Counted from the stretch's first letter, positions 5,726-33,632 are shown. The stretch is DNA of 40,315 nucleotides from a virus (IMGVR_UViG_2541047797_000007), one strand, 5' to 3'. Program-made: numbers and translations. The notes: generated by a model not told the origin, from the letters alone.

Positions 5726-5740
5726 TTACCTTTCGGGTAA
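5726..5740. promoter_or_regulatory. Operator-like site TTACCTTTCGGGTAA (TTACC-N5-GGTAA family)
   Basis: Perfect inverted-repeat half-sites, intergenic between the tailspike start and the plus-strand moron island. Confidence 0.6.
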
Positions 5741-5817
5741 TTTGCAAAACGTGCTGGATAGCAAACAAATTATTTGATACTGTATAAATATACAGTTATT
5801 GCATGGAGAAGATTAAG

Positions 5818-6075
5818 ATGCAGCAGTATCACTATCCACTGGAAGAGGGATTTACCGAAAGGATTCACACGCCGGGAGGCGTCAGGTCACTGGTGGAGGG
5901 ATCGCACTTGATGAAATTACTCCGGGATCTCGATAAGGATGGATTTAATGTCGATGGCCCACTTGCCGAACTGACTGCACTGATTAACTACGTCACCAGC
6001 TCACAGATGTCTATGCAGGATCTGCAAACACATCTCGACTATTGTGCCGAACAATTACGAAAACAAACCAGATAA
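5818..6075 (+). CDS. Small protein homologous to the C-terminal domain of the downstream antirepressor
   Basis: Residues RIHTPGGVRSLVEGSHLMKLLRDL...ELTALINYV...QTHLDY align with Ant C-terminus [24 protein letters not shown]...ELTTMFCYI...QTHAEY. Start chosen at the second ATG (5818), which has SD GGAGAAG; the ORF track starts at 5803. Confidence 0.55.
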   Translation: MQQYHYPLEEGFTERIHTPGGVRSLVEGSHLMKLLRDLDKDGFNVDGPLAELTALINYVTSSQMSMQDLQTHLDYCAEQLRKQTR

Positions 6076-6106
6076 GGTTTGCAATTACCAAATGGAGTGC
6101 TTATAT

Positions 6107-6121
6107 TTACCTTTGCGGTAA
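6107..6121. promoter_or_regulatory. Operator-like site TTACCTTTGCGGTAA
   Basis: Perfect TTACC-N5-GGTAA, extended dyad ATTTACC...GGTAAAT, in the leader between the Ant-domain paralog and ant. Confidence 0.6.
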
Positions 6122-6210
6122 ATTTACATCGCACTCCTCTTGTGCCATAGTAATCGGGCACTGGCAAAATCCAGTGCCGGGATTGGTCTCCCGGATTACT
6201 AAGTGGCGCA

Positions 6211-6236
6211 TACCACGCCAGACGTGGTTTTTTTAT
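6211..6236 (+). terminator. Intrinsic terminator / attenuator in the ant leader
   Basis: Hairpin ACCACG-CCAGA-CGTGGT followed by TTTTTTTA; preceded by further stem-loops at 6140-6200. Confidence 0.5.
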
Positions 6237-6392
6237 GCGTATAGCACAGTCATGCCAGAATTATGGTGGGCTGAATGGGGGTCCGAAAGGACGCCGGTAC
6301 CACTTAGGCCGGTAAGACCAACTCCGTTCAGTTCACCACCATCTGATTGGTCTCAGCGGTGGTGATGTAATTCGCTAAGTGGAGACGCCATC

Positions 6393-7049
6393 ATGAACGC
6401 TCAACTCATCCCCGTATTCAACGGCACTATATCTAACGAAACAGCCCTACTTTGTAATGCCCGCGATCTGCACGCTTTTTTAGGTGTTAAAAAGGTGTTT
6501 GCAGCATGGATTACAAATCGCATATCAGAATACGAATTCATTGAAAATCAAGACTATATTTTGCTTTCCAATTTGGGAAAGCAAACATCTGGTAGAGGCG
6601 GCCACAACCGCAAAGAGTACCACCTCACCCTTGATACAGCCAAAGAGCTGGCGATGGTCGAGCGTAACGAAAAAGGTCGTCAGGTACGACGCTACTTCAT
6701 TGAATGCGAGAAACGTTTAAGACAACAAGAAACAAAAGTGGAGAAGGTCTTGTCAGGCTTCATGCCCGCCATTATGGAGGCGATCAAGCTGGAAGACAAA
6801 AAAGAATACAGTGCCCCGCTGAAGCCCGGCTACCGCAGCCTGATTCATTCGCCGTCTGGTGTTCTCGGCCTGACGGAGAACTCACTGCTGATGAATCTGC
6901 TGAACCAGTTACAGGAAGACGGGCACGACGTATCGGGCGCGGCGGCGGAACTGACCACCATGTTCTGCTACATCGTCGGTGTGAGCAAATGCCTGCGTGA
7001 TATCCAGACCCACGCGGAGTACATCAACGACAAGGCAGGGTTCTTCTGA
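6393..7049 (+). CDS. Phage antirepressor (AntA/AntB-type N-terminal domain)
   Basis: N-terminal region [36 protein letters not shown] matches the AntA antirepressor signature as I recall it; SD GGAG upstream; opposite strand to the surrounding late genes. Confidence 0.75.
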
Positions 7050-7174
7050 CAGAACGGCGGCACAGGGATGTGCCTTTAAATAATTCTGTACGATTGCAGA
7101 CAGGGGGGTGAATAGAGTACTATTACCTTACGGGTGATCCATAGCGATTAGGCACCGATACAGGAGGAGCCCAC

Positions 7175-7207
7175 ATGAGAAAATTTGACGAGTACGAAGG
7201 CGTTTAA
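7175..7207 (+). CDS. Possible 10-codon leader mini-ORF (MRKFDEYEGV) with strong SD
   Basis: AGGAGG at 7162-7167, 7 nt upstream of the ATG at 7175; lies between two operator-like sites upstream of the 211-aa gene. Speculative. Confidence 0.25.
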   Translation: MRKFDEYEGV

Positions 7208-7223
7208 CATTCGGATAGTTCAT

Positions 7224-7238
7224 TTACCCTAATGGTAA
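7224..7238. promoter_or_regulatory. Operator-like site TTACCCTAATGGTAA
   Basis: Perfect TTACC-N5-GGTAA, extended ATTTACC...GGTAAAT, 41 bp upstream of the 7279 start; a one-mismatch copy at 7124-7138. Confidence 0.6.
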
Positions 7239-7278
7239 ATCCCGCTTAAAGAAGCATCTATATATTATGAGGTGATGT

Positions 7279-7914
7279 ATGCCACAACAACTGCTGAATC
7301 CGGCAAAGGTAACTGAGGTTTTCGCTCATCTGAACGAAACTCCAGACAACCGCGCCCTGTATTCAGAGTTAGTGAACGGCAACGATGTCACATCTGATGT
7401 CAAAGGCGTTTCTCTGGCTCCTGGATACCGCGTTGTCCGTGTAGACGATCGTAAGAAAGGCGAGATTCCACAGGCGCACTTTGAACTGTCATTGATAAAT
7501 GACCTCACCGAAGAGGTAGTGTATTACAATCGTGTCATTATCCAGCCTGACAGCTATCTTAACTGCCGTCCTGTCACGCAGATATTGGTATGGAGAACCC
7601 AGAAGCCTAAGCATCGTGCTGTGCTTCATGATTTCGCCGGCATCATCTTCATGAACTACCTCTTGGAACGGTACGATATCATCGTGTCAGATCGCAACCA
7701 GACTCATGAAGGCATGTCGTTCTGGCAGGCTCGCATGTATGACGCACTGGAACTTGGCCTCCACCTCTATGGTTACGACATGATGACATGCGAGCTGATA
7801 GAGATGAATAACGAGGAAGAGCTTGAGAAAGGTGAAACCTGGTTGTGGGGTGATGCGGAAAACTTCCAAAACAGATTGGCCATAATTTCAAAGCATAAGC
7901 TGCCAATAAAATAG
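7279..7914 (+). CDS. Hypothetical protein (211 aa), moron with its own terminator
   Basis: SD GAGGTGA upstream; no motif I recognise; followed by an intrinsic terminator; embedded antisense in the late operon. Confidence 0.6.
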   Translation: MPQQLLNPAKVTEVFAHLNETPDNRALYSELVNGNDVTSDVKGVSLAPGYRVVRVDDRKKGEIPQAHFELSLINDLTEEVVYYNRVIIQPDSYLNCRPVTQILVWRTQKPKHRAVLHDFAGIIFMNYLLERYDIIVSDRNQTHEGMSFWQARMYDALELGLHLYGYDMMTCELIEMNNEEELEKGETWLWGDAENFQNRLAIISKHKLPIK

Positions 7915-7920
7915 TTCTTT

Positions 7921-7945
7921 AAGCCCGCGACGCGGGCTTTTTTGT
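7921..7945 (+). terminator. Rho-independent terminator after the 211-aa gene
   Basis: GC-rich hairpin GCCCG-CGACG-CGGGC followed by TTTTTTG. Confidence 0.75.
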
Positions 7946-7981
7946 GTCTGCGGATTCCCGCCCTGGCGGCGGTGGCATTCG

Positions 7982-8007
7982 TTAAAAACAAGGCCGCGAA
8001 AGCGGCC
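7982..8007 (-). terminator. Rho-independent terminator (minus strand) directly downstream of palindrome copy 1
   Basis: On the minus strand: GGCCGC-TTTC-GCGGCC hairpin followed by TTGTTTTTAAC; convergent with the plus-strand terminator at 7921. Confidence 0.7.
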
Positions 8008-8008
8008 T

Positions 8009-8020
8009 GTGACATGTCAC
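8009..8020. repeat. Perfect 12-bp palindrome GTGACATGTCAC, copy 1 of 3
   Basis: Exact match read from the sequence; overlaps the stop of the 8017..8313 gene and abuts the terminator hairpin. Confidence 0.9.
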
Positions 8021-8313
8021 GCTCTTTTTCTGAATGATAGCCATTCGAAAAATGATGACATTCCACCGCAGACAATAGCAAAGATGATCCCACCAAAGAA
8101 GAGAAGGCCAGCCTGCCACCACTCCCACCGCCATACATCCACAGCGCCAACCATACCAACAATCGCTCCAACAAATGGAATATAGCTCACGATGAAAGCA
8201 ATGGGGGCTGCAATTATCCAGTGCAATCCCCACCATGATTCAAGCCCAGCCATAATTGCTGCCAACTGAAAAAGACCAACGACGATATAAACAATGAATC
8301 CTATAGCTTGCAT
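8017..8313 (-). CDS. Small integral membrane protein (98 aa), possible superinfection-exclusion/immunity-type moron
   Basis: Three hydrophobic helices, Trp-rich; sits alone between the ejection-protein genes and the antirepressor island. Function is inference only. Confidence 0.55.
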   Translation of the reverse strand: MQAIGFIVYIVVGLFQLAAIMAGLESWWGLHWIIAAPIAFIVSYIPFVGAIVGMVGAVDVWRWEWWQAGLLFFGGIIFAIVCGGMSSFFEWLSFRKRA

Positions 8314-8508
8314 GTAGTCACCTATTTACCCAGTAAAAATCAGAGGCCTCCCCTCAATAAGGCTTGCAACAAGAACTATTCCCTGCACAACAAAGATGAA
8401 CCAGCAAATAGCTTGAGTCTGAGGGTTAAGAAAATATTTGTAGCGGTCAATAAATAACAACCCACCAAAAATTATCACACTCAAAATAATTAAAAACACA
8501 ACACTTCC

Positions 8509-10983
8509 TTATTGCGGAGTGACATCCTGAGGTCGCCACCAGTATGTCTGGTTAAACTCTTTCTTCGAACGTTGCTCCATTTTACGCAAATAGCCTGGTG
8601 AAAAATACTCCTGCATCTGGTTAAAAATCATGTGATCGAGAGCCGCCTTCAAGTACCAGAGATTCGCACCTGGCATCAAACCTTTCCCCAGCTTCACCAA
8701 ATCACCACCAGTCTGCTCACTCTTCCCTTCCACAGCATTTAACGGTATGCCCTGAGCAATCTTCACTACGTCATCAACCAGACCAGCTACCGGGCCAAGC
8801 ATCGACGCCAGCGCGCCGCTTCCGTACCTAGTGTGATCTGACAATAAAAAGTCACCGTAAAGGCCAAGACCACCACCTTTCAGTAGAGCACCAAGCCAAA
8901 ATTTAGCAGCATCTTCTCCTGTCATCTCGCGAGGATTACGACCAGACGCAAGGTCGTTAAGTTGCTGCGACAAAGCGCCAAGAATGGTCGTACTGGCAAT
9001 AAACGTCGCAATATATGCCGCACGCCCACCAGCAGACGGCATACCCATAGCGCGTGACCAGTGACGCATAACCACCGAGATAGGGAACGATTTAAACAGG
9101 AAAACACTTCTCGTTAATTCACCTTTCCATGTTCCACGCTGAATACCAGAACCGGTTATCAGTTGCTCACGTGCTCCCGGTGTAATAACAGCCATATCAA
9201 CTTCTTCAGTTACGGCACCGAGCAGTTTACGCATTGCCTCAAATTTCACGCGTTCAGGCTCACCAAGATGTTTAACTGCTGAATCAGGGATACGCATAAT
9301 GCTTTCCGGTGTCAGCATCGTATTATTGCCGTTCCCCCAGTCCTCCTGTTGCGCCAGCTTCCATACGCTCCAGTCTGTGTCAGTAATCCCTTTGCTTTTC
9401 AGGATACGAAAATCAGAATCATCGAGGCTACGAAGGTCTGGTGTCCGTGACACTACTTCTCCCAGGCTTCCCATCATGGTTACGCCATAGGCGCGCTTGT
9501 GCGCATCTGACCATGCTGTAAGCCCACTGGCACGCATTACCGCCGTTGCAGCCCAACGAGACACAGACGGCCCCATATTATCCATCGCCCAGCGGTTAAC
9601 GCTGCCAAGTAGAGATTCCATCGCCAGACCAGCGCGGCGCGCCCGCGCAAGTTCTGTACGGTTCGTTGGGTCCATAGCTTCAAGCTGGTTGCGGAATAAC
9701 TGGTTCATTGGAAGGTTGGTAACCTTCGCAGACAGATACATGGTTCCAAGATCAGAGAACGATGACAGCAACGCGGATCCGAGTCTGCTGGCAACCAGCC
9801 AGTTGCGGATATTGTCAGACCATCGCGCGATGTGCGGATTCGCTACAGGCTGTGTCTTTCCGGAAATAAAGTTGTACAGATTCTCTGTGTTGTTCGCCAG
9901 CCGCTCGACTTTACCGGTTTTACTCGGGTTAGCTGTTGCCGTTTCTGCCTTAACCTGATCAAGAAGGGAGCGGAAAACATGATCGGGGTTTGGACCATAT
10001 GTTTCCACCAGAGCAATATCTTTACTGATACCTTCCAGGTGACCGACCATGATTTCCCATAGAGAGCGATCGCCATAAAGTTGTTGATATTGGAGATAGG
10101 AATCAGCATCTTTGAAATGTATCTGTCGTGATGCATTACCACGGTTAGCACGTGCGCCGGAAATTCGCATTCCGGTATCAGTAAGCTTATTCAGCCCACC
10201 AGTAGCGATCGTGTTATAAGCCTCTCCAAGAAATGCAGACAACTCGGCATCGTTCATCAGTTGTCCATCGGCTCGGGTATAATATTTGCGATCCAGCTTA
10301 CCTATAACATCGTTAACCCACTTATCCTTTGATACCGCCCCAACCTTTTCCATAGAATGATGTTGAGGGATCCCCCAGTTTTCGAGATAGCCAATGTCCC
10401 CACCAGCATCATTAAACCGGCGGCGCAGCAGCTCTGTAACTTCTCTCCACGCCTTAGCACCTTTTCTTGCTTTAGCATTGCCAGTATTTTGCCCCCGCAT
10501 TTCATATACCAGGTCACGTACGCCCGCTTCATCTTCAAACAGACCAAAAAAGCGAGGATCAACTGCTTCGAATGCCTCCTGCAATTGACTCAATGCATAA
10601 TCACGGGTGGCTTTTGTTCTGGATTCAACAGAGAGGAAATTAGATTTACCGTCTGCATTAAAAGCTATAGTACGGTTAAGAGCGCCAAGTTTCCCATCAG
10701 CCCCTTGATAGCTATTGATAAATTTATCCAATCTCTGACGCGCGGCTATAGTGAGAGCCACACGACGTTTCTTTAATGCCGCTTCTCGCTGTAATTCTTC
10801 AGATGCCAATTGTGCTGCTCGATATAGCCGCTCTGATTCGGAAAGTTGTCGCCACGACATCGGGTCATCACGAGCAATGGAGCGCATATTTCGATAAATG
10901 CGGTCTTCAATGTTCTGTATTTCTCGCGCCGTTAACATGCGCTGCGCCGCCTGCTGAACCGCCTGTATACATTCCTGTCTCAT
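8509..10983 (-). CDS. Large internal virion / ejection protein (824 aa)
   Basis: Last of three large consecutive, translationally coupled genes downstream of the nozzle genes; the position resembles podovirus internal core/ejection proteins. No specific motif recognised. Confidence 0.55.
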   Translation of the reverse strand: MRQECIQAVQQAAQRMLTAREIQNIEDRIYRNMRSIARDDPMSWRQLSESERLYRAAQLASEELQREAALKKRRVALTIAARQRLDKFINSYQGADGKLGALNRTIAFNADGKSNFLSVESRTKATRDYALSQLQEAFEAVDPRFFGLFEDEAGVRDLVYEMRGQNTGNAKARKGAKAWREVTELLRRRFNDAGGDIGYLENWGIPQHHSMEKVGAVSKDKWVNDVIGKLDRKYYTRADGQLMNDAELSAFLGEAYNTIATGGLNKLTDTGMRISGARANRGNASRQIHFKDADSYLQYQQLYGDRSLWEIMVGHLEGISKDIALVETYGPNPDHVFRSLLDQVKAETATANPSKTGKVERLANNTENLYNFISGKTQPVANPHIARWSDNIRNWLVASRLGSALLSSFSDLGTMYLSAKVTNLPMNQLFRNQLEAMDPTNRTELARARRAGLAMESLLGSVNRWAMDNMGPSVSRWAATAVMRASGLTAWSDAHKRAYGVTMMGSLGEVVSRTPDLRSLDDSDFRILKSKGITDTDWSVWKLAQQEDWGNGNNTMLTPESIMRIPDSAVKHLGEPERVKFEAMRKLLGAVTEEVDMAVITPGAREQLITGSGIQRGTWKGELTRSVFLFKSFPISVVMRHWSRAMGMPSAGGRAAYIATFIASTTILGALSQQLNDLASGRNPREMTGEDAAKFWLGALLKGGGLGLYGDFLLSDHTRYGSGALASMLGPVAGLVDDVVKIAQGIPLNAVEGKSEQTGGDLVKLGKGLMPGANLWYLKAALDHMIFNQMQEYFSPGYLRKMEQRSKKEFNQTYWWRPQDVTPQ

Positions 10984-10988
10984 TTAAT

Positions 10989-12791
10989 TTAACCTCTCAA
11001 GAAACACGCCACAGCGACATCAAACAGGCTGGAATCCTGTATTGCCTGCTCACTTTCCCTGTTCGCTTCATCCAGTACTTCACGCGCACTGCGCGATTGT
11101 GGATTACCATCATCATCCAGCACGGTGATTATCATGTCAGGTGATTCAAGCAGCGAGTCTTCAGCTATACGCAGATCAATATCTCCTGCCGGATCTGCCA
11201 TCATTTTTTGTTCTGTCTGTTGCAATATCTTACCGGGCTCAAAAGGAGCTACTTCGTCTGGCGTCCTGACCTCTGCTGTTTTATAGAATGAAACAGCCTG
11301 AGCATTAAGTTCACTTTCTGCCTGCTGTCGTCGTGCCAGTTCTGCTCGAGCTTCAAAAAACTGACCGCCAGGCTCATGCGGTGCCAACGCGTTACGGGAA
11401 AATTCCAGGCGCTCTTGTGCCTGCCGGATTCGTTGGTCAATATCGCGAAGTCTGACCTGTTTATCTGATCGAGCACGAGACAAAGCTTTACCGCTACCGG
11501 TTGGCTCTTCTGCAAGAATTTGTGCGCGCTGTTCAGTGAGATTTTCAATAATTCGTTGGCTATTAGCGATTTCAGACTGGTAAACCTGTCTATCGCCACG
11601 CGGCAAAAGCTGCGCGGCCTGTTCTTCAAGCAACCGATTTTCTATAGCGCGCGCCGTTACTCCATCATCTACAGATGACAGAGCCTCATTAACTGCCTGA
11701 GACAACAGACTCTTGCGCCCAGGAATTTCACTGAAAGATGCAGACTCAACAATGCTGGCAACGTCTACAGGTCTCCCCTGGCTAACATCAGACATAGCTT
11801 TTCGCAGAGCCTGAATGTGAGAATTGCGCGAAAGCACGTTGATCGGCACGCCGGGCGCAATATCAATTTCAGCATGATGAGCGGCATTCGCCGCCAGTGC
11901 AGCATCAACATCAACTGGTGAAAAATTTGGTGCGCTTGTAGACTCGCCGCGAGAGTTCATAAATCTGCCGACACCACCAAACGCCACCCCAAGAACAGCA
12001 TCAATAGCAATTGCCTGTCGATCCAACACATCATACTGGTTAGCCATTTCGCTATAGCCACCATCACGAAGCGTTTTTGCAGTAAGCCCACGCTGTGCCA
12101 TACCGAACGCAATATTTGTACCTGCGGCATAGGCAATATCTGGCGTTGCACGTACTGCTGTTGCTGCGGCGCGTCGCACTGAACTTTCACCCGTCCGCGC
12201 AAGCTGGGCCGCCACACCTTCCGCCAGCGCACCACCAGCACGTAACCCGAGGCTCATAGGGATCAGTGTTCCGGCACCAGCAGTAATACCCTGCACTAAT
12301 CCCGCTTCCTGCGCCGTCCTGAAATCAACACCCTGTGCTGTCAGCCGTTCAAACTCAGAAAAACCCTGTAGAGAAGTTACCGCCGCAGCACCTCCGACCG
12401 GACCACCGAGCGTTGTACCGACAACAGCCTGCCCTCCCATATCGAACAACCCATAAAGGACCTGCCCGGCGGTTCCGGTTGTCGCGGCATCAGGCGTCAG
12501 CCGCTTAACCTGCTGCTCTGCTAGTTTTCTCTGCTCGGCAATGTATGAAACTGAAGTGTCATTGAGCGAGGTGTTTTCGTTAACAAACTGAGCAATCGGG
12601 GATACGATTTTATCCATCCCTGCCCATAGCAACTGATCTGGCTTTGCCACCAGCCCGGAGTACAAACCAGACAATGCCGCTCCTACAGCATTGTCGAAAA
12701 AACCAACATCGCTGTTAAAGCCAGCTGGATTTGATGCTGCTTCGTCAAGCTGCTGATTCTGGTTTACTGGATTAAGGCCAAAGTAACTCAT
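10989..12791 (-). CDS. Internal virion / ejection protein (600 aa)
   Basis: Ala/Gly-rich protein; start overlaps the stop of the upstream gene (ATGA). Confidence 0.5.
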   Translation of the reverse strand: MSYFGLNPVNQNQQLDEAASNPAGFNSDVGFFDNAVGAALSGLYSGLVAKPDQLLWAGMDKIVSPIAQFVNENTSLNDTSVSYIAEQRKLAEQQVKRLTPDAATTGTAGQVLYGLFDMGGQAVVGTTLGGPVGGAAAVTSLQGFSEFERLTAQGVDFRTAQEAGLVQGITAGAGTLIPMSLGLRAGGALAEGVAAQLARTGESSVRRAAATAVRATPDIAYAAGTNIAFGMAQRGLTAKTLRDGGYSEMANQYDVLDRQAIAIDAVLGVAFGGVGRFMNSRGESTSAPNFSPVDVDAALAANAAHHAEIDIAPGVPINVLSRNSHIQALRKAMSDVSQGRPVDVASIVESASFSEIPGRKSLLSQAVNEALSSVDDGVTARAIENRLLEEQAAQLLPRGDRQVYQSEIANSQRIIENLTEQRAQILAEEPTGSGKALSRARSDKQVRLRDIDQRIRQAQERLEFSRNALAPHEPGGQFFEARAELARRQQAESELNAQAVSFYKTAEVRTPDEVAPFEPGKILQQTEQKMMADPAGDIDLRIAEDSLLESPDMIITVLDDDGNPQSRSAREVLDEANRESEQAIQDSSLFDVAVACFLRG

Positions 12792-19750: not shown

Positions 19751-20095
19751 TTACACGCCCAGTTCTTTACGCTTATCTGCGATCTTCTCGCGTAGCGTTT
19801 CTGCTTTGGCGTTATGGTGTGGCTTCTCGTTAAAGAGCAATTCGTACTCTTCACGGAGCTTATCCAGTTCACCATCATCTGACACATCGTTGATGATTTT
19901 GGTGCTGGTTGCTGCCATAGACACCTTTCCTGCTACCTTTTCTTTTGCCTGTCTGGCTGCATCGTTAACAGGTTCCAGTGCGCTACCAGGCTCACCTTCG
20001 TATTCGATTTCTGCCCCCTCCGGCCACAGAGTGTTATGGATATGAGAGAGGCGCAGAACGCGGTATCTTGGTTTCTCACCTGACATAAATATCAC
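19751..20095 (-). CDS. Structural-module hypothetical protein (114 aa)
   Basis: ORF in the head module with a charged C-terminus; the true start may be an internal Met. Confidence 0.4.
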   Translation of the reverse strand: MIFMSGEKPRYRVLRLSHIHNTLWPEGAEIEYEGEPGSALEPVNDAARQAKEKVAGKVSMAATSTKIINDVSDDGELDKLREEYELLFNEKPHHNAKAETLREKIADKRKELGV

Positions 20096-24478: not shown

Positions 24479-24568
24479 ATCAATGACTCCGTACGCAATT
24501 AAATTATTACCAATTTAACCACATATGATTTATTTATCGTAGATAGTTGACATTTAACGCACGAATTA

Positions 24569-24583
24569 TTACCTTTCAGGTAA
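24569..24583. promoter_or_regulatory. Operator-like site TTACCTTTCAGGTAA in the terminase-portal gap
   Basis: Perfect TTACC-N5-GGTAA preceded by AATTAT as at the early promoter; a TTGACA hexamer lies at 24547-24552. Confidence 0.55.
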
Positions 24584-25052
24584 GCAAAGAGTTCATTCCG
24601 GTTATTAACCTGACTGGCTTGTCGTTAAATTGAACAGGTGGAGTGAGCTTTTATTTTGAGCAGTACGGCGTATGGCACATGCGCCGATAGCGGTCTGGAT
24701 ACGTTTAAGGGGCACCCTCACTTGCTCGAGCAAACGAACCAGGTAGCCGGAATGTGCAAGTCGAGCGGTTTTATTCCGCGCACGGGGATTCACCATCCCG
24801 GCGATTCGGTGTGACGCATCGGAAGAGACGAGGGTACAACGATGAGAGCATTTATGGAGCCGCGACAAAGTGTGGCGCCTTAACAGGCTAAGTGCTCTCA
24901 GCGTTGTGGCATTAGCTCAGTTGGACACTTATACAACATGAAGTTACAATGCCTGCATGCGGCGCTTATTCAGAATGGGCACTTCGATAAAACAAGTGCC
25001 ATCAATATTGCGGAAGCCATCAACGCTGGATTTAATGCCATTAAATAACACC

Positions 25053-25064
25053 GTGACATGTCAC
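25053..25064. repeat. Perfect 12-bp palindrome GTGACATGTCAC, copy 2 of 3
   Basis: Exact match; followed on the plus strand by the hairpin and T-run at 25069..25096, i.e. the same module as copies 1 and 3 but in the opposite orientation. Confidence 0.9.
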
Positions 25065-25068
25065 AAAC

Positions 25069-25096
25069 AGCCAGCCGATGAGCTGGCTTTGTTTTA
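25069..25096 (+). terminator. Intrinsic terminator on the plus strand (antisense to the late operon)
   Basis: Hairpin AGCCAGC-CGATGA-GCTGGCT followed by TTGTTTTAT. Confidence 0.6.
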
Positions 25097-26614: not shown

Positions 26615-27207
26615 TGATTACCATCCTGACGTTCTTTGAGTCGCTTCCTGGCTGCTGCTATGCGATCAGCAATTGTCACATTCACATTAACATCCAGACG
26701 TTCTTTGAACGCGTTGACATCAACATGCTTACCAATCAGCTCAAGGTTCTTCACCTTGTCAGGCCATTTAATTTTTTTGAGGATTGTCTCTATCGAATCC
26801 TCGTTCATGTTCATGATGGTCGATGACAGATCAAAGCCACTAAGCGTAGTGCGCCAGATTTTCGGCCACTCACGGATTGGTTTAAGGCTCCCATCGTCGT
26901 TGAGGATGTCGATCACGTCCATCTGGTCGATCTCCACCAGGCGCATGAGAACGTAATCAGCACTGACGCGCATTCGTTTGTTGCGCTCCTCCATCAACTC
27001 GGCAATCCGTTTTTGAATGCGTTCATCGCGCATCATGACGCTGGCTTTAACTGCCGCTGTATTTGGGGAGAATCCTGCGTTAATCGCTGCCTGAGTCTGG
27101 TTTTCAGGCGTTTTGATGTATGACTGGCAATAAGCCTCCTGCATTGCTGTTAGTGGCTTAAATTGCGTTGATTTGCGTTTATAGGTTTTAGGTTCAGCAG
27201 GCATCAT
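26611..27207 (-). CDS. Terminase small subunit
   Basis: Directly upstream of and overlapping the large subunit gene. Start placed at the tandem internal ATG codons (27207) because the track N-terminal extension runs through the upstream terminator hairpin. Confidence 0.7.
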   Translation of the reverse strand: MMPAEPKTYKRKSTQFKPLTAMQEAYCQSYIKTPENQTQAAINAGFSPNTAAVKASVMMRDERIQKRIAELMEERNKRMRVSADYVLMRLVEIDQMDVIDILNDDGSLKPIREWPKIWRTTLSGFDLSSTIMNMNEDSIETILKKIKWPDKVKNLELIGKHVDVNAFKERLDVNVNVTIADRIAAARKRLKERQDGNQ

Positions 27208-27249
27208 AACCACCGTGGTAATAGTTACCGTTGTGGTAATAGTACCATG

Positions 27250-27276
27250 CAAAATAAAGCCGCCATAGTTGGCGGC
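27250..27276 (-). terminator. Intrinsic terminator immediately upstream of the packaging/late operon
   Basis: Minus strand: GCCGCC-AACTAT-GGCGGC hairpin followed by TTTATTTTG, about 40 nt upstream of the terS start. Confidence 0.65.
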
Positions 27277-27316: not shown

Positions 27317-27328
27317 GTGACATGTCAC
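27317..27328. repeat. Perfect 12-bp palindrome GTGACATGTCAC, copy 3 of 3
   Basis: Exact match; overlaps the stop of the 27325..27672 gene and lies 40 nt upstream (minus strand) of the terminator at 27250..27276. Confidence 0.9.
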
Positions 27329-27672
27329 ACTATTAATTTCGTTTCATGCCAGCCTTTAGTCACCCAGCATTGCGAGTCACCATTACACGGGCATGAATTA
27401 ACTGGAACTCTCTCGCCGCACTTACCGCAACGTTTTCTGCTGATCGATTTTATACGCCCGCGCACACGTGCATCATCCTGGCGGATCAGCAGCGCGATGT
27501 ACTCGGCCATTTCATAGGGATCGCGACCAGGGCGCCGGGCGGCGCAGTTCCGCGCCAGCATTTCCTGCTCCTGCTTATCCAGCACCAGTTCAATTTTGCG
27601 CTCACCGGCGGCGGACTGCCGAGCGCGCTGCGCGGCTTTGCGTTCTGCGGGGGATTTAGCCACGAATCGCAC
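27325..27672 (-). CDS. Candidate late-gene regulator: basic N-terminal region plus C-terminal Cys-rich zinc-ribbon-like motif
   Basis: C-terminus CGKCGERVPVNSCPCNGDSQC; basic N-terminus (RFVAKSPAERKAAQRARQ) loosely resembles small RHH/CopB-like DNA-binding proteins. Occupies the position held by Q in lambdoid phages. GTG start; start uncertain. Confidence 0.45.
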   Translation of the reverse strand: MRFVAKSPAERKAAQRARQSAAGERKIELVLDKQEQEMLARNCAARRPGRDPYEMAEYIALLIRQDDARVRGRIKSISRKRCGKCGERVPVNSCPCNGDSQCWVTKGWHETKLIV

Positions 27673-28330: not shown

Positions 28331-29341
28331 TTATTCGCAAACGCCAGCATAAACGCTGCTGCAAACTGATTTGTCATTTGACTCTGCCAGCAGGTCAAAT
28401 TGAGCACCGCCTCTGGTGGTCATGGCCCAGTCACGGTAAGACTCAATACCGTATGCATCGACAGTAACGACGTCGATTCGTTTTTCTGCTCTGCGCGGGT
28501 CGTGCGTTGACGGAAAGAACGTTGAATTTCCACGGCGTGAGCAGGCAGCGACAAATCGCTCCCACTCTGCTACCCGTTTAATTTCTTCCGGCCAGCGAGT
28601 GAAAATTTCTGCCAGTTCTGATTTTCTGGCATGGATACATGGCATGCATCCAACCCGACTACAGCCCTGCTGGTAAAGTGGATTTGGCTTAATGCCATGG
28701 CGTTTGGCCAAGGAAAATACCTCTTCGTGCGTCCATTTCAATATTGGGCGGTACACATGCAGACCAGGGGTATTATCAGCATCTTCTTCCCACTCAGGCA
28801 GGCCAGCGCGGGCTGGGGATTCTTGGGCGCGAACTCCCTGCCAAAGAATAACTTCATCGTATTTTTCTAGCGCGGGGAGAACTATCTGATCGCGTACCGG
28901 ATCGTGCTTAAGTTCCAGAGAGCAGAAACGTGCTTTTGTACTCGGGAACCTGCCCTTCCACATGCACAAATCAAGGAATGGGTTTCCTGTTGGCTTGAGG
29001 ATATTCAGCGCCTGGGTGATACGTTCTGCGGCCTCCTCGTTAGACATGCCACATTCTTCAACCAGAGATATAGGCCATTTCTCAGCAATGAATTTCCGCT
29101 TACCTTCAATCTTTCGATTAAAATCAGCCTTCACTCGGGTTACCGGGCCGAGCAAAGATTCAAGATAGTCCAGGTATTCCATTGTCTGCGGGTGCTCATG
29201 TCCGGTATCCGCGAAAACAGTTATATGAGGGACACTGTTTTCAACGGCAAGGATCCATTGAGCAAGGCTGTCTTTCCCGCCAGATACGGAAATAACGTTG
29301 ATTGTGCTGGTTGCTTTGCAGCGTTTGTCGATGTTGCTCAC
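28331..29341 (-). CDS. Phosphoadenosine phosphosulfate (PAPS) reductase-family protein (PP-loop ATP pyrophosphatase fold)
   Basis: PP-loop motif SGGKDS near the N-terminus (VISVSGGKDSLA) and Cys-rich C-terminal region (CSRVGCMPC). Confidence 0.75.
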   Translation of the reverse strand: MSNIDKRCKATSTINVISVSGGKDSLAQWILAVENSVPHITVFADTGHEHPQTMEYLDYLESLLGPVTRVKADFNRKIEGKRKFIAEKWPISLVEECGMSNEEAAERITQALNILKPTGNPFLDLCMWKGRFPSTKARFCSLELKHDPVRDQIVLPALEKYDEVILWQGVRAQESPARAGLPEWEEDADNTPGLHVYRPILKWTHEEVFSLAKRHGIKPNPLYQQGCSRVGCMPCIHARKSELAEIFTRWPEEIKRVAEWERFVAACSRRGNSTFFPSTHDPRRAEKRIDVVTVDAYGIESYRDWAMTTRGGAQFDLLAESNDKSVCSSVYAGVCE

Positions 29342-29562
29342 TCTTCATCCTCCAAGTCGGCAACGGCGTCCATCACATCAGAACCGCGAATAACCTCAAA
29401 AGCACGGCAGGCCATTTGAAATACCAGTTGCTCTTGCGGATGCGGTGATTCCCAATATTTGAATCCAGGGCGATGCTCGTACCCCATCATTGAATAAAAA
29501 TCACCAGCAAGCTTAATCGCGGCATCGACAAGCTCTCTGTTAGTCATTCTTTTTCCGCTCAC
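29338..29562 (-). CDS. Hypothetical protein (74 aa)
   Basis: Coupled (ATGA overlaps) between two early-operon genes. Confidence 0.45.
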   Translation of the reverse strand: MSGKRMTNRELVDAAIKLAGDFYSMMGYEHRPGFKYWESPHPQEQLVFQMACRAFEVIRGSDVMDAVADLEDEE

Positions 29563-30041
29563 TGGTTGCCTCCTTTGCGAAGCTGGTCGGCGAACAAACG
29601 TACACCAGACGCTTCACTGCGTAGAAACTTAACGGCATCATCAAAACCACCTCGTTCTGCGTCGTCTGCTCCGTTGTCGAGGTTATCTGCGTACATCTCT
29701 ACCCCCTGCGCCCGTACTTCAGCCAGGAAAGCATCGGTGGCTGGCATATTTCCTGTTGCCTTCATTGCCTCCAAAATAACCAGAACGCCATCTCGCCCAA
29801 TCTCCTCGCAGATAACCTCGGTGCTGTCGCCAACAACATCGCAAAATGCCTGAACTGCTTTACGAGCCAGCGCATTCTCCGCAGCCAGCGCATTAGCACG
29901 CACCAGTTGCACTTCCAGCTGCGTTGCCAAATCGCTGATCAGCTTTGCCACACTACGCATATCAACGGCACCACATTCTGCTTTCAGTTCCGAAGCCATC
30001 TCATGCCCGGCGGCAACTAACCCTTTGATATTACTTTCCAT
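29559..30041 (-). CDS. Hypothetical protein (160 aa), acidic C-terminus
   Basis: ORF in the nin-like region; no motif recognised. Confidence 0.45.
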   Translation of the reverse strand: MESNIKGLVAAGHEMASELKAECGAVDMRSVAKLISDLATQLEVQLVRANALAAENALARKAVQAFCDVVGDSTEVICEEIGRDGVLVILEAMKATGNMPATDAFLAEVRAQGVEMYADNLDNGADDAERGGFDDAVKFLRSEASGVRLFADQLRKGGNQ

Positions 30042-30102
30042 CTTTACCCTCGCTTATCCACATAACTTATTGATTACATTGATAACTAAAAAGATCGTCG
30101 CT

Positions 30103-30447
30103 TCAGAACTCTTCGATGTTCCAGCCACCACCTGCTTTCTTTGGTTTAACCGTTACCCCGATGATTCGGAACGGATACTGATCTGCGGCGACTTTGGTTT
30201 TCACCCTGGCGTCGTCGGTCCAGAAACCTTTCACTTCGTGCAGTTCCATCTCGCCGGTGGCGAGCATCACAGCAAAATCGGGCGTATAGAACGTGTTGTC
30301 AGCTAACCGCAGCTTGATACCCTCAAATCGATACCAGACGATTTCTCCTGCACGTTTACGCAGCTCAAGGTGCTGGCAATACGCAGATTCTGTTTTGTTC
30401 ATTTGGCCTGTTTTGAGTCGACCAAGAGCCTGTATCTGTTTTCTCAT
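30103..30447 (-). CDS. DUF1064-type phage protein
   Basis: Sequence pattern (YCQHLELRKRAGEI..YRFEGIKLRLA..YTPDFAV...ELHEVKG) fits the DUF1064 family common in lambdoid nin regions. Confidence 0.6.
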   Translation of the reverse strand: MRKQIQALGRLKTGQMNKTESAYCQHLELRKRAGEIVWYRFEGIKLRLADNTFYTPDFAVMLATGEMELHEVKGFWTDDARVKTKVAADQYPFRIIGVTVKPKKAGGGWNIEEF

Positions 30448-30450
30448 GAT

Positions 30451-30465
30451 TTACCCCTTAGGTAA
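30451..30465. promoter_or_regulatory. Operator-like site TTACCCCTTAGGTAA
   Basis: Perfect TTACC-N5-GGTAA, 3 nt upstream (minus strand) of the DUF1064 start codon. Confidence 0.55.
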
Positions 30466-30512
30466 TTAAAAACCACATAAGACATGAAATCAATAGAGAT
30501 TAGAACATTTTG

Positions 30513-30527
30513 TTACCCAACAGGTAA
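30513..30527. promoter_or_regulatory. Operator-like site TTACCCAACAGGTAA
   Basis: Perfect TTACC-N5-GGTAA in the same intergenic region, 62 bp from the previous site. Confidence 0.55.
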
Positions 30528-30564
30528 TCATGTAGGCGTAAAAAAATGCGCTATCGCGCTGGTA

Positions 30565-31365
30565 TTACTTGATAAATCCTGCCGCCTTTCCCCGCCTGTA
30601 TTCCTCTATCAGCCACTGCGCCGGTGTTATTCCCCCCAGGGTGGCGGCGTTAGGCATGCACCCGAAACTTCGCCCTGGTGGATGGTAAACGTCTCTCCCA
30701 GTGTCAGGAGGCGTACTCATGGGTTCTGGCTTTGCCTGTATGCTGATCACCGGATCGGGTATCTGCTGTCCGGAAGCCACCTTTTTCGCCCAATCATCGA
30801 GCAGCCTGCGCGCGTGTTTCTCAACCTCAATCTCGCTAAGCTGGCGCTGATACATTGCACGGCGGGTATCACATACGACCCAGTACATAACCGGATGTCG
30901 CCACGGGAATCTTTCGGGACCACCAGGATATAAACTTTTTTCCTTGCTGTACCGGTGAAACTCCGCCATCACATCGTCAATGGTGACGCCAAGAACCATC
31001 TTGCTGTCTTTACACCACTTGATAAATTGCCCAGGCGACGGCCAGAACGGAGATTCACTGGCGCGGGCGTGGCGCATACCAGCAGAAACCTGTTCACGGG
31101 TTCTGATCCCCCCTTCGGCAAACGCAGCAATCCACTGCTGTTTTGCAGCAACTTCCTGCTCTGGCGTCTTCAGGTTGGTTACCACTGCCGCCGGAAACAG
31201 TTGTTTCAGCTGTTTGAAAAGGGCATCAACAAGCCTCTCTGCTGACATGTTCACCACGTTGTCATTGTTGGTGTACTGATGCTCATAACCTGACATGCGA
31301 GAAAGGGCTTCTCCGTCACGGTTTTGTATCGCGGTAAAAACGTTGTTCACAAGAAATCCTCCCAT
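30565..31365 (-). CDS. Replication protein P-like (helicase loader)
   Basis: Segment WIAAFAEGGIRTREQVSAGMRHARASESPFWPSPGQFIKWC closely parallels lambda P (WVLAFRENGITTMEQVNAGMRVARRQNRPFLPSPGQFVAWC) as I recall it. Confidence 0.8.
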   Translation of the reverse strand: MGGFLVNNVFTAIQNRDGEALSRMSGYEHQYTNNDNVVNMSAERLVDALFKQLKQLFPAAVVTNLKTPEQEVAAKQQWIAAFAEGGIRTREQVSAGMRHARASESPFWPSPGQFIKWCKDSKMVLGVTIDDVMAEFHRYSKEKSLYPGGPERFPWRHPVMYWVVCDTRRAMYQRQLSEIEVEKHARRLLDDWAKKVASGQQIPDPVISIQAKPEPMSTPPDTGRDVYHPPGRSFGCMPNAATLGGITPAQWLIEEYRRGKAAGFIK

Positions 31366-32162
31366 GCTTCAGGGCTGTTCCAGTGCGGAACGTTGTTATC
31401 AGGTAATGTTGATTGCTTCTGTCTGCTAATCTGCAGCCGCCTTGCCAGCTTCTGCTCCCACTGTGCCTGATGGTATGCCTTACCCTCAGCCATCCAGTAA
31501 ATTCTGAACTCTGCAAGTTCCTGTGCCGTTGGCAGACTGTCCAGGTAGATCCCCTGCAATGAGCTTTTCCGAAGAAAGTCATCTGATGGTTGCCATTGTT
31601 CATGCATGACAAATTTGCCTAATTGCCCTGGCCCACCAGGAGGAACAAAGTTATTCATCACGGCGTTGTTTGCGCCGGGGTCATGAGGCACAGAATCCCC
31701 GGTTTTTGTCCTGCTCTCCCTCTCTTGGTTAAATGACTGGTTATATGACTGGTTCTGGATCCCGTTTTTGGGATCATTCAACATCCCGTTTTTGGGATCA
31801 TTCAACATCCCGTTTTTGGGTATATTCCCGTTTTCGGGAACATTACCGTTTTCGGGTTCATTACAGCCTTCTAGGTTGCCTTTAATGTTCCCGTTTTTGG
31901 TTATATTAAGAGAGAAAACCCGCACTCTTTTTGTCGCTCCCTTTCTCTCTCCGGTATCTGAAATAAGCCCCATTTTCATGAGCGATATAAGTCCGGCCTG
32001 CACGGTTTTTTTATTCAGGCAAGTGTCTTTAACGAGGCGTTCTATGCTGGGGTAGCAGAGGTTATATTCATCGGCTCTGTCAGCCATCGAGAGCAGTATG
32101 AGCTTTAATGACGAGCTACCTGGATCTGTCTCCCAGGCCCAATCTGTTGCATGTCTGCTCAT
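31347..32162 (-). CDS. Replication initiator O-like protein with internal iterons
   Basis: N-terminal HTH-type replication-protein domain; the central part is encoded by tandem DNA repeats (protein repeats NGNVPENGNIPKNGMLNDPKNGMLNDPKNG); overlaps the P-like gene. Confidence 0.75.
   Translation of the reverse strand: MSRHATDWAWETDPGSSSLKLILLSMADRADEYNLCYPSIERLVKDTCLNKKTVQAGLISLMKMGLISDTGERKGATKRVRVFSLNITKNGNIKGNLEGCNEPENGNVPENGNIPKNGMLNDPKNGMLNDPKNGIQNQSYNQSFNQERESRTKTGDSVPHDPGANNAVMNNFVPPGGPGQLGKFVMHEQWQPSDDFLRKSSLQGIYLDSLPTAQELAEFRIYWMAEGKAYHQAQWEQKLARRLQISRQKQSTLPDNNVPHWNSPEAWEDFL
31755..31910. other. Candidate origin of replication: about 6 iterons with core CCCGTTTTTGGGA inside the O-like gene
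   Basis: Direct repeats at about 31761, 31785, 31809, 31827, 31846 and 31890 with 18-24 bp spacing, each containing a small dyad (TCCCG..GGGA). Confidence 0.7.
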
Positions 32163-32177
32163 GATTAATCTCCGCTA

Positions 32178-32378
32178 TCAGCTTGAATGTTGTGGGGAGG
32201 AATTAATCATGATCTGCTTAATCTCTGCCCTGATGCGACGGTTTGATTCCATGGTGCACTCAACACAGTGTCCGTTGTAAACCCAGCGTTCACTGTCATG
32301 TCCGTGCTTACATGGTTTTCCGGTGTAGTAGCGTTTAAGTCCGCGCTTTGCGGCATCAATACGTGTAATGATTTCCAT
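32178..32378 (-). CDS. Small Cys/His-rich (zinc-finger-like) early protein
   Basis: Start placed at the internal ATG (MEIITRIDAAKRGL...); motif CKHGH...NGHCVEC; located between the Cro-like gene and the O-like gene. Confidence 0.45.
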   Translation of the reverse strand: MEIITRIDAAKRGLKRYYTGKPCKHGHDSERWVYNGHCVECTMESNRRIRAEIKQIMINSSPQHSS

Positions 32379-32528
32379 GGTAAGCCCTGTTATTAGTATT
32401 GGGATTACGGTTATTTTGTGCTGACACAAAAAAAAGATCAACCAGATTTGGTTTTTTATTACCTTTGAGGTGCGAATAGATATGAAAAGACCGCCGGATG
32501 GCGGTCTACAGAGGGTTGTGGCTGGATA

Positions 32529-32759
32529 TCATGAGTAGAAGAAGTATGCCAGTTCTGCTTTTGAGCGCAGCCATTGTCTTGTTTTACAGGCTTTAAAAAG
32601 CCCATTCATCAATACCTTACCTGGCATTTTGCGCTTACCTGTTAAGTGAGTCTGGATATAGTGACTCGTCGTTCCGGCTTCCTGTGCGAAGGCTTCACGC
32701 TCATCCGGAGTAAGTGCAAGCCAGTGCTTTTTGAAATCGAAATGTCCGTTATCGCTCAT
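32529..32759 (-). CDS. Cro-like small HTH regulator (first gene of the early replication operon)
   Basis: 76 aa; segment LTPDEREAFAQEAGTTSHYIQTHLTG resembles an HTH; divergent from the CI-like gene across an operator-rich region. Confidence 0.55.
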   Translation of the reverse strand: MSDNGHFDFKKHWLALTPDEREAFAQEAGTTSHYIQTHLTGKRKMPGKVLMNGLFKACKTRQWLRSKAELAYFFYS

Positions 32760-32791
32760 AGCTATTGCCTGATATTTATTTCAGATAATAA

Positions 32792-32820
32792 ATATTCACC
32801 CATAAGGTAACAAAAATCAA
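32792..32820 (-). promoter_or_regulatory. Candidate early promoter driving the Cro-like/O/P operon
   Basis: On the minus strand: TTGATT, 17-bp spacer, GAATAT. The spacer contains operator site TCACC-CATAA-GGTAA (32796..32810). Confidence 0.5.
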
Positions 32821-32858
32821 GGATAGTTACCTATGGGGTGCATTTACCTATTGGGTAA
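32796..32858. promoter_or_regulatory. Operator cluster in the immunity intergenic region (three TTACC-N5-GGTAA-type sites)
   Basis: Sites at 32796-32810 (TCACC..GGTAA), 32827-32841 (TTACC..GGTGC) and 32844-32858 (perfect), plus an AT-rich dyad ATATTTATT / AATAAATAT at 32772-32795. Confidence 0.65.
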
Positions 32859-32913
32859 TATTGCTTTAAATTGAATCATCTACTGATTCATATATGAGGC
32901 GATTTTCCAGAAA

Positions 32914-33498
32914 ATGAAAAGTATCCAGGACGTCCGCAGGCAAAATCTCAACGACTTGATCGACCGTGAATTCAATGGTGTTCAGACGCGGATGGCAGAA
33001 AAACTTGGAACTCAGGCAAATCTGGTAAACCGCTGGGCTCTTGGCAAGAAGGTTATCGGCGACCAGGTTGCGCGAAAAATTGAAGCTGCCGCCAATAAAC
33101 CCCGTAACTGGCTTGATATCGATCGCTCGCTTTCTCAGGAAGGTTTTCAGCCTGTCGGCCCAAGCGACATTGGTCAGCTGGCGGCTCACAACCTAGAACG
33201 CTGGATGAGCGAAAGCCGCGACCTTTCAACGCAGGGAAAACTTCACCGCGCATCCGGCGTCGCCCAGGTGACAATCAGCCGCCTGTTAAACAATGAGGTC
33301 AGTGTTTCCATTTCCACCCTGGAGAATGTTGCATCCGCATTCGGGCGTCACGGCTATGAATTACTGATTCACCCGCACGACCCTGCGACCATCAACTATG
33401 ACCGCTCGCGCTACGCATTGTTACCTGAAACAGAGAAGGCAAAGATCGAAAGTTACATTGAATTTGTCATCAGCCAGAACGAAAAAAACAAACAATAA
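32914..33498 (+). CDS. CI-like repressor candidate with two HTH domains and no S24 peptidase domain
   Basis: Two HTH-like segments (MAEKLGTQANLVNRWALGKK and ASGVAQVTISRLLNNEVSVSISTLENVA); divergent from the Cro-like gene; followed by an intrinsic terminator; no Ala-Gly/Ser-Lys autocleavage module visible. Confidence 0.6.
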   Translation: MKSIQDVRRQNLNDLIDREFNGVQTRMAEKLGTQANLVNRWALGKKVIGDQVARKIEAAANKPRNWLDIDRSLSQEGFQPVGPSDIGQLAAHNLERWMSESRDLSTQGKLHRASGVAQVTISRLLNNEVSVSISTLENVASAFGRHGYELLIHPHDPATINYDRSRYALLPETEKAKIESYIEFVISQNEKNKQ

Positions 33499-33518
33499 AA
33501 CCATATTTTTCAGTAAGT

Positions 33519-33545
33519 AAGCCGCCTCATGGCGGCTTTTTTATT
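33519..33545 (+). terminator. Rho-independent terminator after the CI-like gene
   Basis: Hairpin GCCGCC-TCAT-GGCGGC followed by TTTTTTATTG. Confidence 0.75.
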
Positions 33546-33555
33546 GCCTGTGCGA

Positions 33556-33570
33556 TTACCTGATGGGTAA
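33556..33570. promoter_or_regulatory. Operator-like site TTACCTGATGGGTAA upstream of the early-left promoter
   Basis: Perfect TTACC-N5-GGTAA, 20 bp upstream of the -35 hexamer. Confidence 0.6.
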
Positions 33571-33589
33571 TTTTTTTAACTCATATCTA

Positions 33590-33617
33590 TTGACATCAAA
33601 CCAGATACGCATAATTA
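33590..33617 (+). promoter_or_regulatory. Candidate sigma-70 early-left promoter
   Basis: TTGACA at 33590-33595 and TAATTA/ATAATT at 33611-33617 (15-16 bp spacer), with an operator site overlapping the -10 and start region. Confidence 0.55.
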
Positions 33618-33632
33618 TTACCTCAACGGTAA
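33618..33632. promoter_or_regulatory. Operator-like site TTACCTCAACGGTAA overlapping the early-left promoter
   Basis: Perfect TTACC-N5-GGTAA directly abutting the -10 element. Confidence 0.6.

Follow-up and report, generated by a model that had tools for sequence, protein, structure and literature searches.

The virus sequence IMGVR_UViG_2541047797_000007, a stretch of 40,315 nucleotides (nt) referred to here in its full length as the window, is a Uetakevirus prophage (the epsilon15/phiV10 group), and copies of the palindrome TTACC-N5-GGTAA scattered through it are very probably, on comparative sequence grounds, the operators of the prophage's own repressor, Rep, a protein of the epsilon15/SPC32H type. 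The window has the lysis genes at one end and a truncated integrase gene at the other, on the right; in the immunity region its identity to Escherichia phages phiv142-3, PAS61 and phiV10 is 97-98%. An earlier note on this DNA had proposed that one immunity repressor has operators both at the early promoters and at distant loci; homology and comparative evidence support that proposal, and from these we infer binding by the repressor.

An exact search found ten perfect copies, beginning at 5726, 6107, 7224, 24569, 27225, 30451, 30513, 32844, 33556 and 33618; the earlier note had counted nine, all of which exist, and had overlooked 27225. One-mismatch copies begin at 7123, 27207, 32796 and 5494, and the copy at 32827 has two mismatches; of the three positions previously given for one-mismatch copies, 32796 stands, 7124 is really 7123 and 32827 falls out of the class, while 27207 had been omitted. 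The copy at 5494 lies within the tail-fibre coding sequence and is probably a chance occurrence, and the operator map described below therefore comprises 14 sites, the ten perfect copies and four degenerate ones (7123, 27207, 32796 and 32827). Shuffled sequences gave a mean of 0.03 perfect sites and a maximum of 1; the first estimate had been roughly 0.04. In an unbiased tally of every palindrome of the form 5-N(0-11)-5, TTACC with a gap of 5 ranked first with 10 copies, the runner-up having 3. With a gene list matched to the annotation of phiv142-3 and phiV10, non-coding DNA makes up 9.2% of the window and holds all ten perfect sites (P ~4e-11), which bears out the description of these copies as intergenic; it also holds 4 of the 5 degenerate copies.

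A similar density of the motif in host DNA had been named beforehand as an outcome that would speak against such a regulon, and 150 kilobases (kb) of the E. coli K-12 chromosome contained three one-mismatch sites and a single perfect one, which falls within a coding sequence; this is the chance level, ~37-fold below the density in the window. This bears on the idea that the motif is the site of a host protein, for example through cross-recognition by MqsA, or a structural element such as a weak RNA hairpin or a packaging signal. The E. coli K-12 mqsRA promoter (L158, 3585-3625) carries the palindromes TAACC-TTTTA-GGTTA and TAACC-TTTTA-GGTGC, and the MqsA operator, TAACC-N5-GGTTA, shares the ACC-N5-GGT core and differs from the window motif by one base per arm; in addition, the pair of sites at the small terminase gene (terS) is located where several phage records begin. 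However, the motif is at chance level in host DNA and accompanies Rep homologues in five host genera, the A/T-rich stem of 5 base pairs (bp) lacks the strength needed for a functional RNA hairpin, and most sites are distant from the packaging genes. The role of MqsA also differs, being toxin-antitoxin autoregulation, and a host or structural origin for the motif is scarcely credible. A full-text literature search with the motif returned unrelated primer matches only.

The scattered operator set is already documented in epsilon15, and the window adds a member to it, not a new class of regulation. The epsilon15 RefSeq record (NC_004775.2) carries seven features labelled "protein_bind: repressor / lysogeny", of sequence ATTACC-N5-GGTAAT, all in agreement with the window motif: one before the small terminase gene, one in the gap between the large terminase gene (terL) and gp3, one in the space separating the tail-fibre gene from the small gp19 gene, three on the downstream side of the repressor gene and one after the replication genes. 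Their syntenic counterparts in the window are 27225 (epsilon15 12..27), 24569 (2931..2947), 5726 (19895..19911), 33556/33618 and 30513. The epsilon15 sites between rep and the divergent gene in the cro position are omitted by the record's seven, yet were found there by the motif scan. The two phages are thus alike in palindrome, syntenic places, 62-bp spacing of the early-left pair, genus and genome layout; they are unlike in that their Rep proteins are 42% identical and in that the window adds operators of accessory modules (6107, 7123 and 7224), which epsilon15 is without.

The same pattern was found in the relatives scanned, namely the complete genomes of phiV10, phiv142-3, epsilon15, SPC32H, Enterobacter phage Tyrion and Klebsiella phage BUCT711, together with Serratia and E. 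coli prophage loci reached through divergent Rep homologues (L086 from Serratia; L088 and L089 from E. coli). TTACC-N5-GGTAA is the top palindrome in every one of them, with 6-11 perfect copies, in Salmonella, Enterobacter, Klebsiella, Serratia and E. coli, and a logo of 75 sites reads A-TTACC-NN-W-NN-GGTAA-T, the central base being A or T in 98%. Sites stand in 6-10 genomes upstream of terS, between terL and gp3, between the antirepressor gene ant and the tail-fibre gene, between rep and the cro-position gene and, as pairs, at the early-left promoter and after the replication genes. A Rep-alignment search of IMG/VR returned only Reps that were 99-100% identical, and it informs on arms versus spacer, not on divergence; in these 79 loci the arms are invariant, the 5-bp spacer takes many forms and the degenerate operators retain their own mismatches, which suggests that selection acts on the arms and on graded affinity. 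Finally, one genome per species (185,579 species) was scanned for two sites 61-63 bp apart. Among the 15 enterobacterial loci recovered, 11 had detectable Rep homology in the fetched stretch, 9 of these also had a cro-position gene, and 4 showed neither.

Two proteins encoded on either side of the rep-cro gap are candidates for reading these sites:

32914..33498, plus strand: Rep, the prophage repressor, 194 amino acids, homologue of SPC32H Rep
32529..32759, minus strand: small helix-turn-helix (HTH) protein in the cro position, gp39 homologue, first gene of the rightward operon, divergent from rep

Residues 1-190 of Rep align to PDB 5D50_A, the SPC32H Repressor (E 4e-42), the C-terminal half aligning with its dimerisation and tetramerisation domains, and the protein is made up of three domains, an N-terminal HTH domain for DNA binding, an HTH_3-like one in the middle for dimerisation and a C-terminal one for tetramerisation and binding of the antirepressor Ant. 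A Pfam search with Rep gave helix-turn-helix families only (HTH_3 at 106-147) and no peptidase domain. The earlier description of the repressor as "CI-like" does not hold up, Rep being without an autocleavage domain and belonging to the tetrameric SPC32H type that is inactivated by an antirepressor. In SPC32H, the N-terminal domain of Rep binds DNA, the middle one dimerises and the C-terminal one both tetramerises and contacts the antirepressor; the Rep tetramer binds palindromic DNA, from which tetrameric Ant frees it (PMC9986798, PMC9638917). The Rep of phage ZX5 is 99.5% identical to that of the window, and its overexpression abolished free phage and reduced holin and endolysin transcripts by >99.9%, in a study that defined no operator (PMC9782041). 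The window protein is 42% identical both to epsilon15 Rep and to SPC32H Rep, with the divergence from SPC32H Rep mostly in the linker and the C-terminal half. By comparison, a helix of the N-terminal domain, N36-L-V/I-N/S-R40-W41, is kept in 21 homologues with identity down to 42%; N36, L37, R40 and W41 are invariant among them and only positions 38 (V/I) and 39 (N/S) vary.

This helix resembles that of MqsA. Aligned by hand, the MqsA helix GGGVNAFSRYEKG and the Rep helix GTQANLVNRWALG have the common pattern N-x3-R-aromatic-x2-G, and in MqsA Asn97 and Arg101 make base contacts. No overall sequence homology between Rep and MqsA was detected, their MAFFT alignment was poor, and a PDB search with the Rep N-terminal domain alone found no DNA-bound relative; the shared pattern may be taken as softly favouring Rep as the reader of the sites. 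The sites could instead be bound mainly or only by the cro-position protein, in which case they would work for the lytic programme and not for lysogenic repression. That protein adjoins the operator cluster in the rep-cro gap (O_R), is as conserved as the motif itself (58-84% identity across four host genera) and matches PHROG 35, annotated "transcriptional repressor", with no PDB or Pfam match. Covariation does not separate it from Rep, as among the 21 Rep homologues (to 42% identity) those with helix variants at 38/39 (L086, L088 and L089) still use TTACC-N5-GGTAA. In lambda-type switches, however, Cro shares the operators of the repressor and does not replace it; the cro-position helix, TSHYIQTHL, is without the N-x3-R-aromatic signature that Rep and MqsA carry; and the epsilon15 record credits the sites to the repressor, while ZX5 Rep overexpression shuts off lytic transcripts (PMC9782041). 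Exclusive or predominant use of the sites by the cro-position protein is thus very unlikely, although this protein may share operators with Rep.

The placement of the sites on promoter elements is clearest in the immunity region, where the operators (listed without strand here and below) and the one listed promoter are:

32796..32810: O_R operator 1, TCACCCATAAGGTAA, one mismatch, within the core of the cro-position gene promoter
32827..32841: O_R operator 2, TTACCTATGGGGTGC, two mismatches, its offset constant in 79/79 related loci
32844..32858: O_R operator 3, perfect, closest to the rep start codon and 17 bp from operator 2
33556..33570: early-left distal operator, 19 nt upstream of the -35, in an architecture kept in 8 genomes
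33590..33618, plus strand: predicted early-left promoter, TTGACA-17-AATTAT, 10/12 consensus matches
33618..33632: early-left proximal operator, covering the predicted transcription start

A predicted minus-strand promoter, TTGTTA-17-TATTAT (32813..32785), overlaps the operator at 32796, the mismatch of which is identical in 79/79 related loci and has its equivalent in a degenerate site of epsilon15; the position of operator 2 is occupied by a perfect site in epsilon15, SPC32H and BUCT711. The three operators are spaced 31 and 17 bp apart, with a like layout in the same three phages, and operators had indeed been placed earlier at the divergent rep and cro promoters. On the other side of rep, the rep terminator (33519-33538) is followed by the distal operator 33556, a T-tract and the TTGACA at 33590, and the predicted -10, AATTAT (33613-33618), ends on the first base of the operator 33618, in keeping with the overlap of operator and -10 claimed before. 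The CTATTGACA and spacing of this promoter are conserved across genera, and the distance from 33556 to 33618 is 62 bp, as it is in phiV10, epsilon15, Tyrion, SPC32H, L088 and L089 (63 bp in BUCT711).

This arrangement recalls the lambda/P22 switch: the repressor gene and the cro-position gene diverge from a gap with three graded operators, another operator set overlaps the -10 and +1 of the early-left promoter, and the operators are palindromes whose half-sites are one helical turn apart. In contrast to lambda, Rep is without an S24 peptidase/RecA-cleavage domain (Pfam finds HTH only) and induction is by antirepressor; the window pairs bracket a promoter at a distance of 62 bp instead of lying side by side; and operators occur also beyond the immunity region, at 5726-7238, 24569, 27207-27239 and 30451-30527.

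Outside the immunity region, operators stand after the replication genes, at terS and in the terminase-portal gap:

30513..30527: distal operator of a promoter after the replication genes, past the replication-gene terminator
30451..30465: proximal operator of the same promoter, 62 bp from 30513, abutting the -10-like TTTAAT (30470..30465)
27225..27239: perfect operator before terS, with a terminator (27276..27259) on one side and the start of terS on the other
27207..27221: degenerate copy in tandem with 27225 at a distance of 18 bp, which overlaps the ribosome-binding site of terS (GGTGG)
24569..24583: terminase-portal operator, between terL and gp3/portal, with a conserved TTGACA 16 nt away on the plus strand

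The post-replication pair had earlier been noticed as a site upstream of the DUF1064 gene, and it does bracket a predicted promoter there. On the minus strand the order is terminator, operator 30513, 19 nt, TTGATT (30493..30488, a -35 read from the sequence), 17 nt, TTTAAT and operator 30451; the DUF1064 start codon, at 30447, is 3 nt past this operator, the purine-rich spacer of which doubles as the DUF1064 ribosome-binding site, and the layout of operators and promoter is alike in 7 genomes. Proximal operators begin on the final -10 base at 33618, 30465, 6107 and 7123, and distal ones lie 19 nt upstream of the -35. At terS, a -10-like TACTAT ends on the first base of the operator 27225, and 27207 is kept as a one-mismatch site in phiV10, epsilon15, Tyrion, L088 and L089. 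The terminase-portal site was confirmed at 24569, with the addition that its TTGACA, at exactly 16 nt in 10 genomes, belongs to a promoter that faces away from the portal gene; by its sequence, the operator would sit at the -10 of a promoter aimed into a variable accessory (moron) region.

Sites in short gaps, several of them after terminators and before genes, are also a feature of the stoperators of mycobacteriophage L5, another system with many repressor sites throughout a genome. L5 stoperators are asymmetric and orientation-biased, and they act on elongation. The window sites are, by contrast, palindromic and overlap a promoter wherever one is predicted (33618, 30451, 6107, 7123 and 32796), and a stoperator-like roadblock was rejected as a general explanation because the sites are palindromic and on promoter elements; it may still apply to the terS pair.

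The remaining operators surround two antirepressor modules:

5726..5740: operator between the tail-fibre gene and ant, ~15 nt upstream of the -35 of the ant promoter
5780..5795: perfect LexA box, CTGTATAAATATACAG, which overlaps the -10 element of the ant promoter
5803..6075, plus strand: SPC32H-type small antirepressor Ant, 89% identical to SPC32H Ant
6107..6121: operator belonging to the second module, kept in phiV10 and phiv142-3
6158-6234, plus strand: isrK-like small RNA, leader of the AntA-type gene
6259-6343, plus strand: C4 antisense RNA, leader of the AntA-type gene
6393..7049, plus strand: AntA-family antirepressor of the second module (Pfam AntA, E 4e-26)
7123..7137: one-mismatch operator, on the first base of which a -10-like TACTAT ends
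7224..7238: perfect operator before the accessory gene 7279..7914

The earlier note had placed operators upstream of a single antirepressor island. The sites at 5726 and 6107 are there, but the island consists of two modules, an SOS-linked Ant (5803..6075) behind the LexA box and an AntA-type antirepressor (6393..7049) behind the isrK and C4 RNAs. The tail-fibre gene lies on the other side of the operator 5726, and the LexA box is conserved in phiV10, epsilon15, Tyrion and SPC32H. Ant matches PDB 5D50_E (E 1.7e-47), and its true start is probably the second ATG, at 5818; it was also observed that Ant is 89% identical to its SPC32H counterpart while Rep is only 42% identical. The window shares with the SPC32H Rep-Ant-LexA switch (PDB 5D50/5D4Z) a full-length Rep homologue, this Ant, a LexA box on the ant promoter and a repressor with no autocleavage domain, and differs from it in the second, AntA-type antirepressor behind isrK and C4. 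According to Kim and Ryu (2013), LexA reportedly controls ant and Rep is left uncleaved.

In the second module, the operator 6107 begins on the last -10 base of a promoter at 6079-6107 and ends one base before the -35 of another at 6123-6151, the predicted start of which fits the 5' end of the isrK-like RNA. The Rfam isrK and C4 scores (67.7 and 61.2 bits) both exceed their gathering thresholds, and the pair occurs also in phiV10 and Tyrion; the site at 7123, which like 7224 precedes the accessory gene 7279..7914, is a perfect copy at the equivalent place in phiv142-3. A comparable organization is found in P1/P7, where a single repressor, C1, has many genome-scattered operators and where, in P1 immI (c4-icd-ant), a C4 RNA stands ahead of the antirepressor gene, as it does here behind the operator 6107 and the promoters 6079-6107 and 6123-6151. 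The P1 antirepressor operon starts at a repressor-controlled promoter, with the operator Op51; P1 operators are 17-mers without symmetry, bound by a repressor, C1, that has no relationship to Rep, whereas the window sites are symmetric perfect palindromes and Rep is an XRE-type HTH tetramer. In phage ZX5, overexpression of ORF4, annotated as a Bro-type anti-repressor, lowered lysogeny (PMC9782041).

Several of these sites (at terS, the tail fibre and gp3) precede late or accessory units that have no good -35, and 6107 is centred near -44 of the isrK promoter, so an activator could be imagined to use them: another phage regulator, such as the gp49/p55 homologue (27325..27672) or a PerC-like protein (37458..37757), both conserved, would switch on middle and late promoters from the motif. 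The strong early-left promoter, however, has its -10 and transcription start covered by the motif, which lies also in the core of the cro promoter, and this is the geometry of a repressor; a late regulator would more plausibly use another conserved palindrome, GTGACATGTCAC, and activation as the function of the motif is highly improbable. The palindrome GTGACATGTCAC has three perfect copies in the window (8009-8020, 25053-25064 and 27317-27328), those at 25053 and 27317 adjoining a predicted intrinsic terminator, and 2-4 copies are present too in epsilon15, BUCT711 and the prophages L086 (Serratia) and L088 (E. coli). A late regulator, for instance the gp49 homologue, may bind this palindrome.

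With Rep as the protein that binds TTACC-N5-GGTAA, a mechanism can be outlined. The N-terminal helix-turn-helix would read each half-site, with the protein assembling as tetramers. In the lysogen, Rep would occupy the three graded operators between rep and the cro-position gene, the 62-bp pair bracketing the early-left promoter (the proximal site over the -10 and the transcription start), the identical 62-bp pair bracketing the second promoter, after the replication genes, and the tandem pair at the terS ribosome-binding region, as well as single operators at the terminase-portal accessory promoter, in the tail-fibre/ant gap and at the promoters of the modules downstream of ant. A tetramer with two DNA-binding pairs could clamp a promoter through the 62-bp pairs, and looping is plausible given their invariance. 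Occupancy would shut down early, antirepressor, accessory and probably late transcription together. Upon induction, to judge from the SPC32H system, DNA damage would take LexA off 5780-5795 and allow Ant to be made, and Ant would bind the C-terminal domain of Rep and strip it from all operators at once.

Several points weigh against this reading. The sites, their geometry, their conservation and the homologies are observed, but Rep binding, the assignment of repression to particular sites and promoters, and looping are what we infer from them, as is the direction of control at 5726, 24569, 27225 and 6107. No strong sigma-70 promoter lies beside 5726, 24569 or 27225, and the role of Rep there is uncertain; at 6107 the position near -44 of the isrK promoter is compatible with either activation or repression. 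The site and the Rep helix are both essentially invariant and the cro-position protein is equally conserved, and because protein and site are both frozen, covariation cannot discriminate between the two candidate binders. Also, the epsilon15 record is silent on whether its annotation was based on prediction or on experiment.

A broader proposal, which we put forward tentatively and which may well prove too strong, is that Rep acts as a lock on the whole genome, combining tetramer clamps at the 62-bp pairs with direct shut-off of the packaging, tail-fibre/lysis and accessory units and of both antirepressor modules. If so, all these phages would share one operator specificity, and immunity differences, if any, would arise at the repressor-antirepressor interface; the ACC-N5-GGT recognition code, moreover, might extend to MqsA and to small XRE-type regulators in Bacillales and Acholeplasmataceae. 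The proposed clamp at the invariant 62-bp pairs, the presumed direct control of late units and the possible sharing of one operator specificity are each worth an experiment. What is new here is a complete, testable map of 14 operators, and of their geometry relative to promoters, in the phiV10 group, whose members are temperate phages that infect E. coli O157, serve as reporter and engineering chassis and have records without operator annotation. The epsilon15 operator set is shown to be genus-wide, with fixed positions and an exact 62-bp pair spacing, and is tied to the solved SPC32H Rep tetramer. Such a map could be used in engineering or curing these prophages and in predicting cross-immunity.

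Some further observations concern the terminase-portal gap. A block of ~60 bp upstream of gp3 (~24480-24545, minus strand; CTACG.TAAATAAATCATATGTGGTTAAATTGGTAATAATTTAATTGCGTACGGAG) is nearly invariant in all relatives, including Serratia, and may be a late-promoter element. Its core, ATGTGGTT, recurs upstream of the tail-fibre gene (5686-5693) and in the spacer of the DUF1064 promoter (30471-30478); as a shared regulatory motif it was discarded, since 3 copies against 1.6 expected is not significant, and a search with a longer pattern gave nothing relevant. Beyond the promoter at 24548-24583, the accessory region 24640-25090 (plus strand) is G+C-rich, has no convincing open reading frame and ends at a terminator (25069-25088); a tRNA-like remnant lies near 24905-24950, where relatives have a tRNA-Arg. 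The region may encode an uncharacterised RNA.

In complete phage genomes, a one-mismatch copy of the operator (TTACC-N5-GGTAT or its mirror) is conserved between the lysis genes and the integrase gene, near attP (L002 26870, L003 26882, L004 28568, L005 12620, L001 39129, L088 16783 and L089 15724). In the prophage this copy would fall just past the right end of the window, and it could place int under Rep control. Within the window, six iteron-like direct repeats (ATCCCGTTTTTGGGA...) at 31759-31911, spaced 24, 24, 18, 18 and 45 bp, fall within the gene of a DnaT-like replication protein (31347..32162) and are probably the phage replication origin.

The pair scan also gave ~49 non-enterobacterial matches, some of which are coincidences in coding sequence or direct repeats. 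Others are separate operator clusters, with 2-5 perfect sites around TTGACA promoters, in Bacillales and Acholeplasmataceae (L100 5517-5866, L144 6208-6561, L135 2921-3021, L111 7472-7822, L124 82-181, L129 4255-4332 and L131 6180-6256). These sequences suggest that this operator code is in use far beyond Uetakevirus. In the Bacillales loci (Planomicrobium, Sporosarcina, Viridibacillus and Lysinibacillus) a small XRE-type HTH gene stands alongside the clusters, and in the Acholeplasmataceae loci a pair of sites 62-63 bp apart brackets a promoter.

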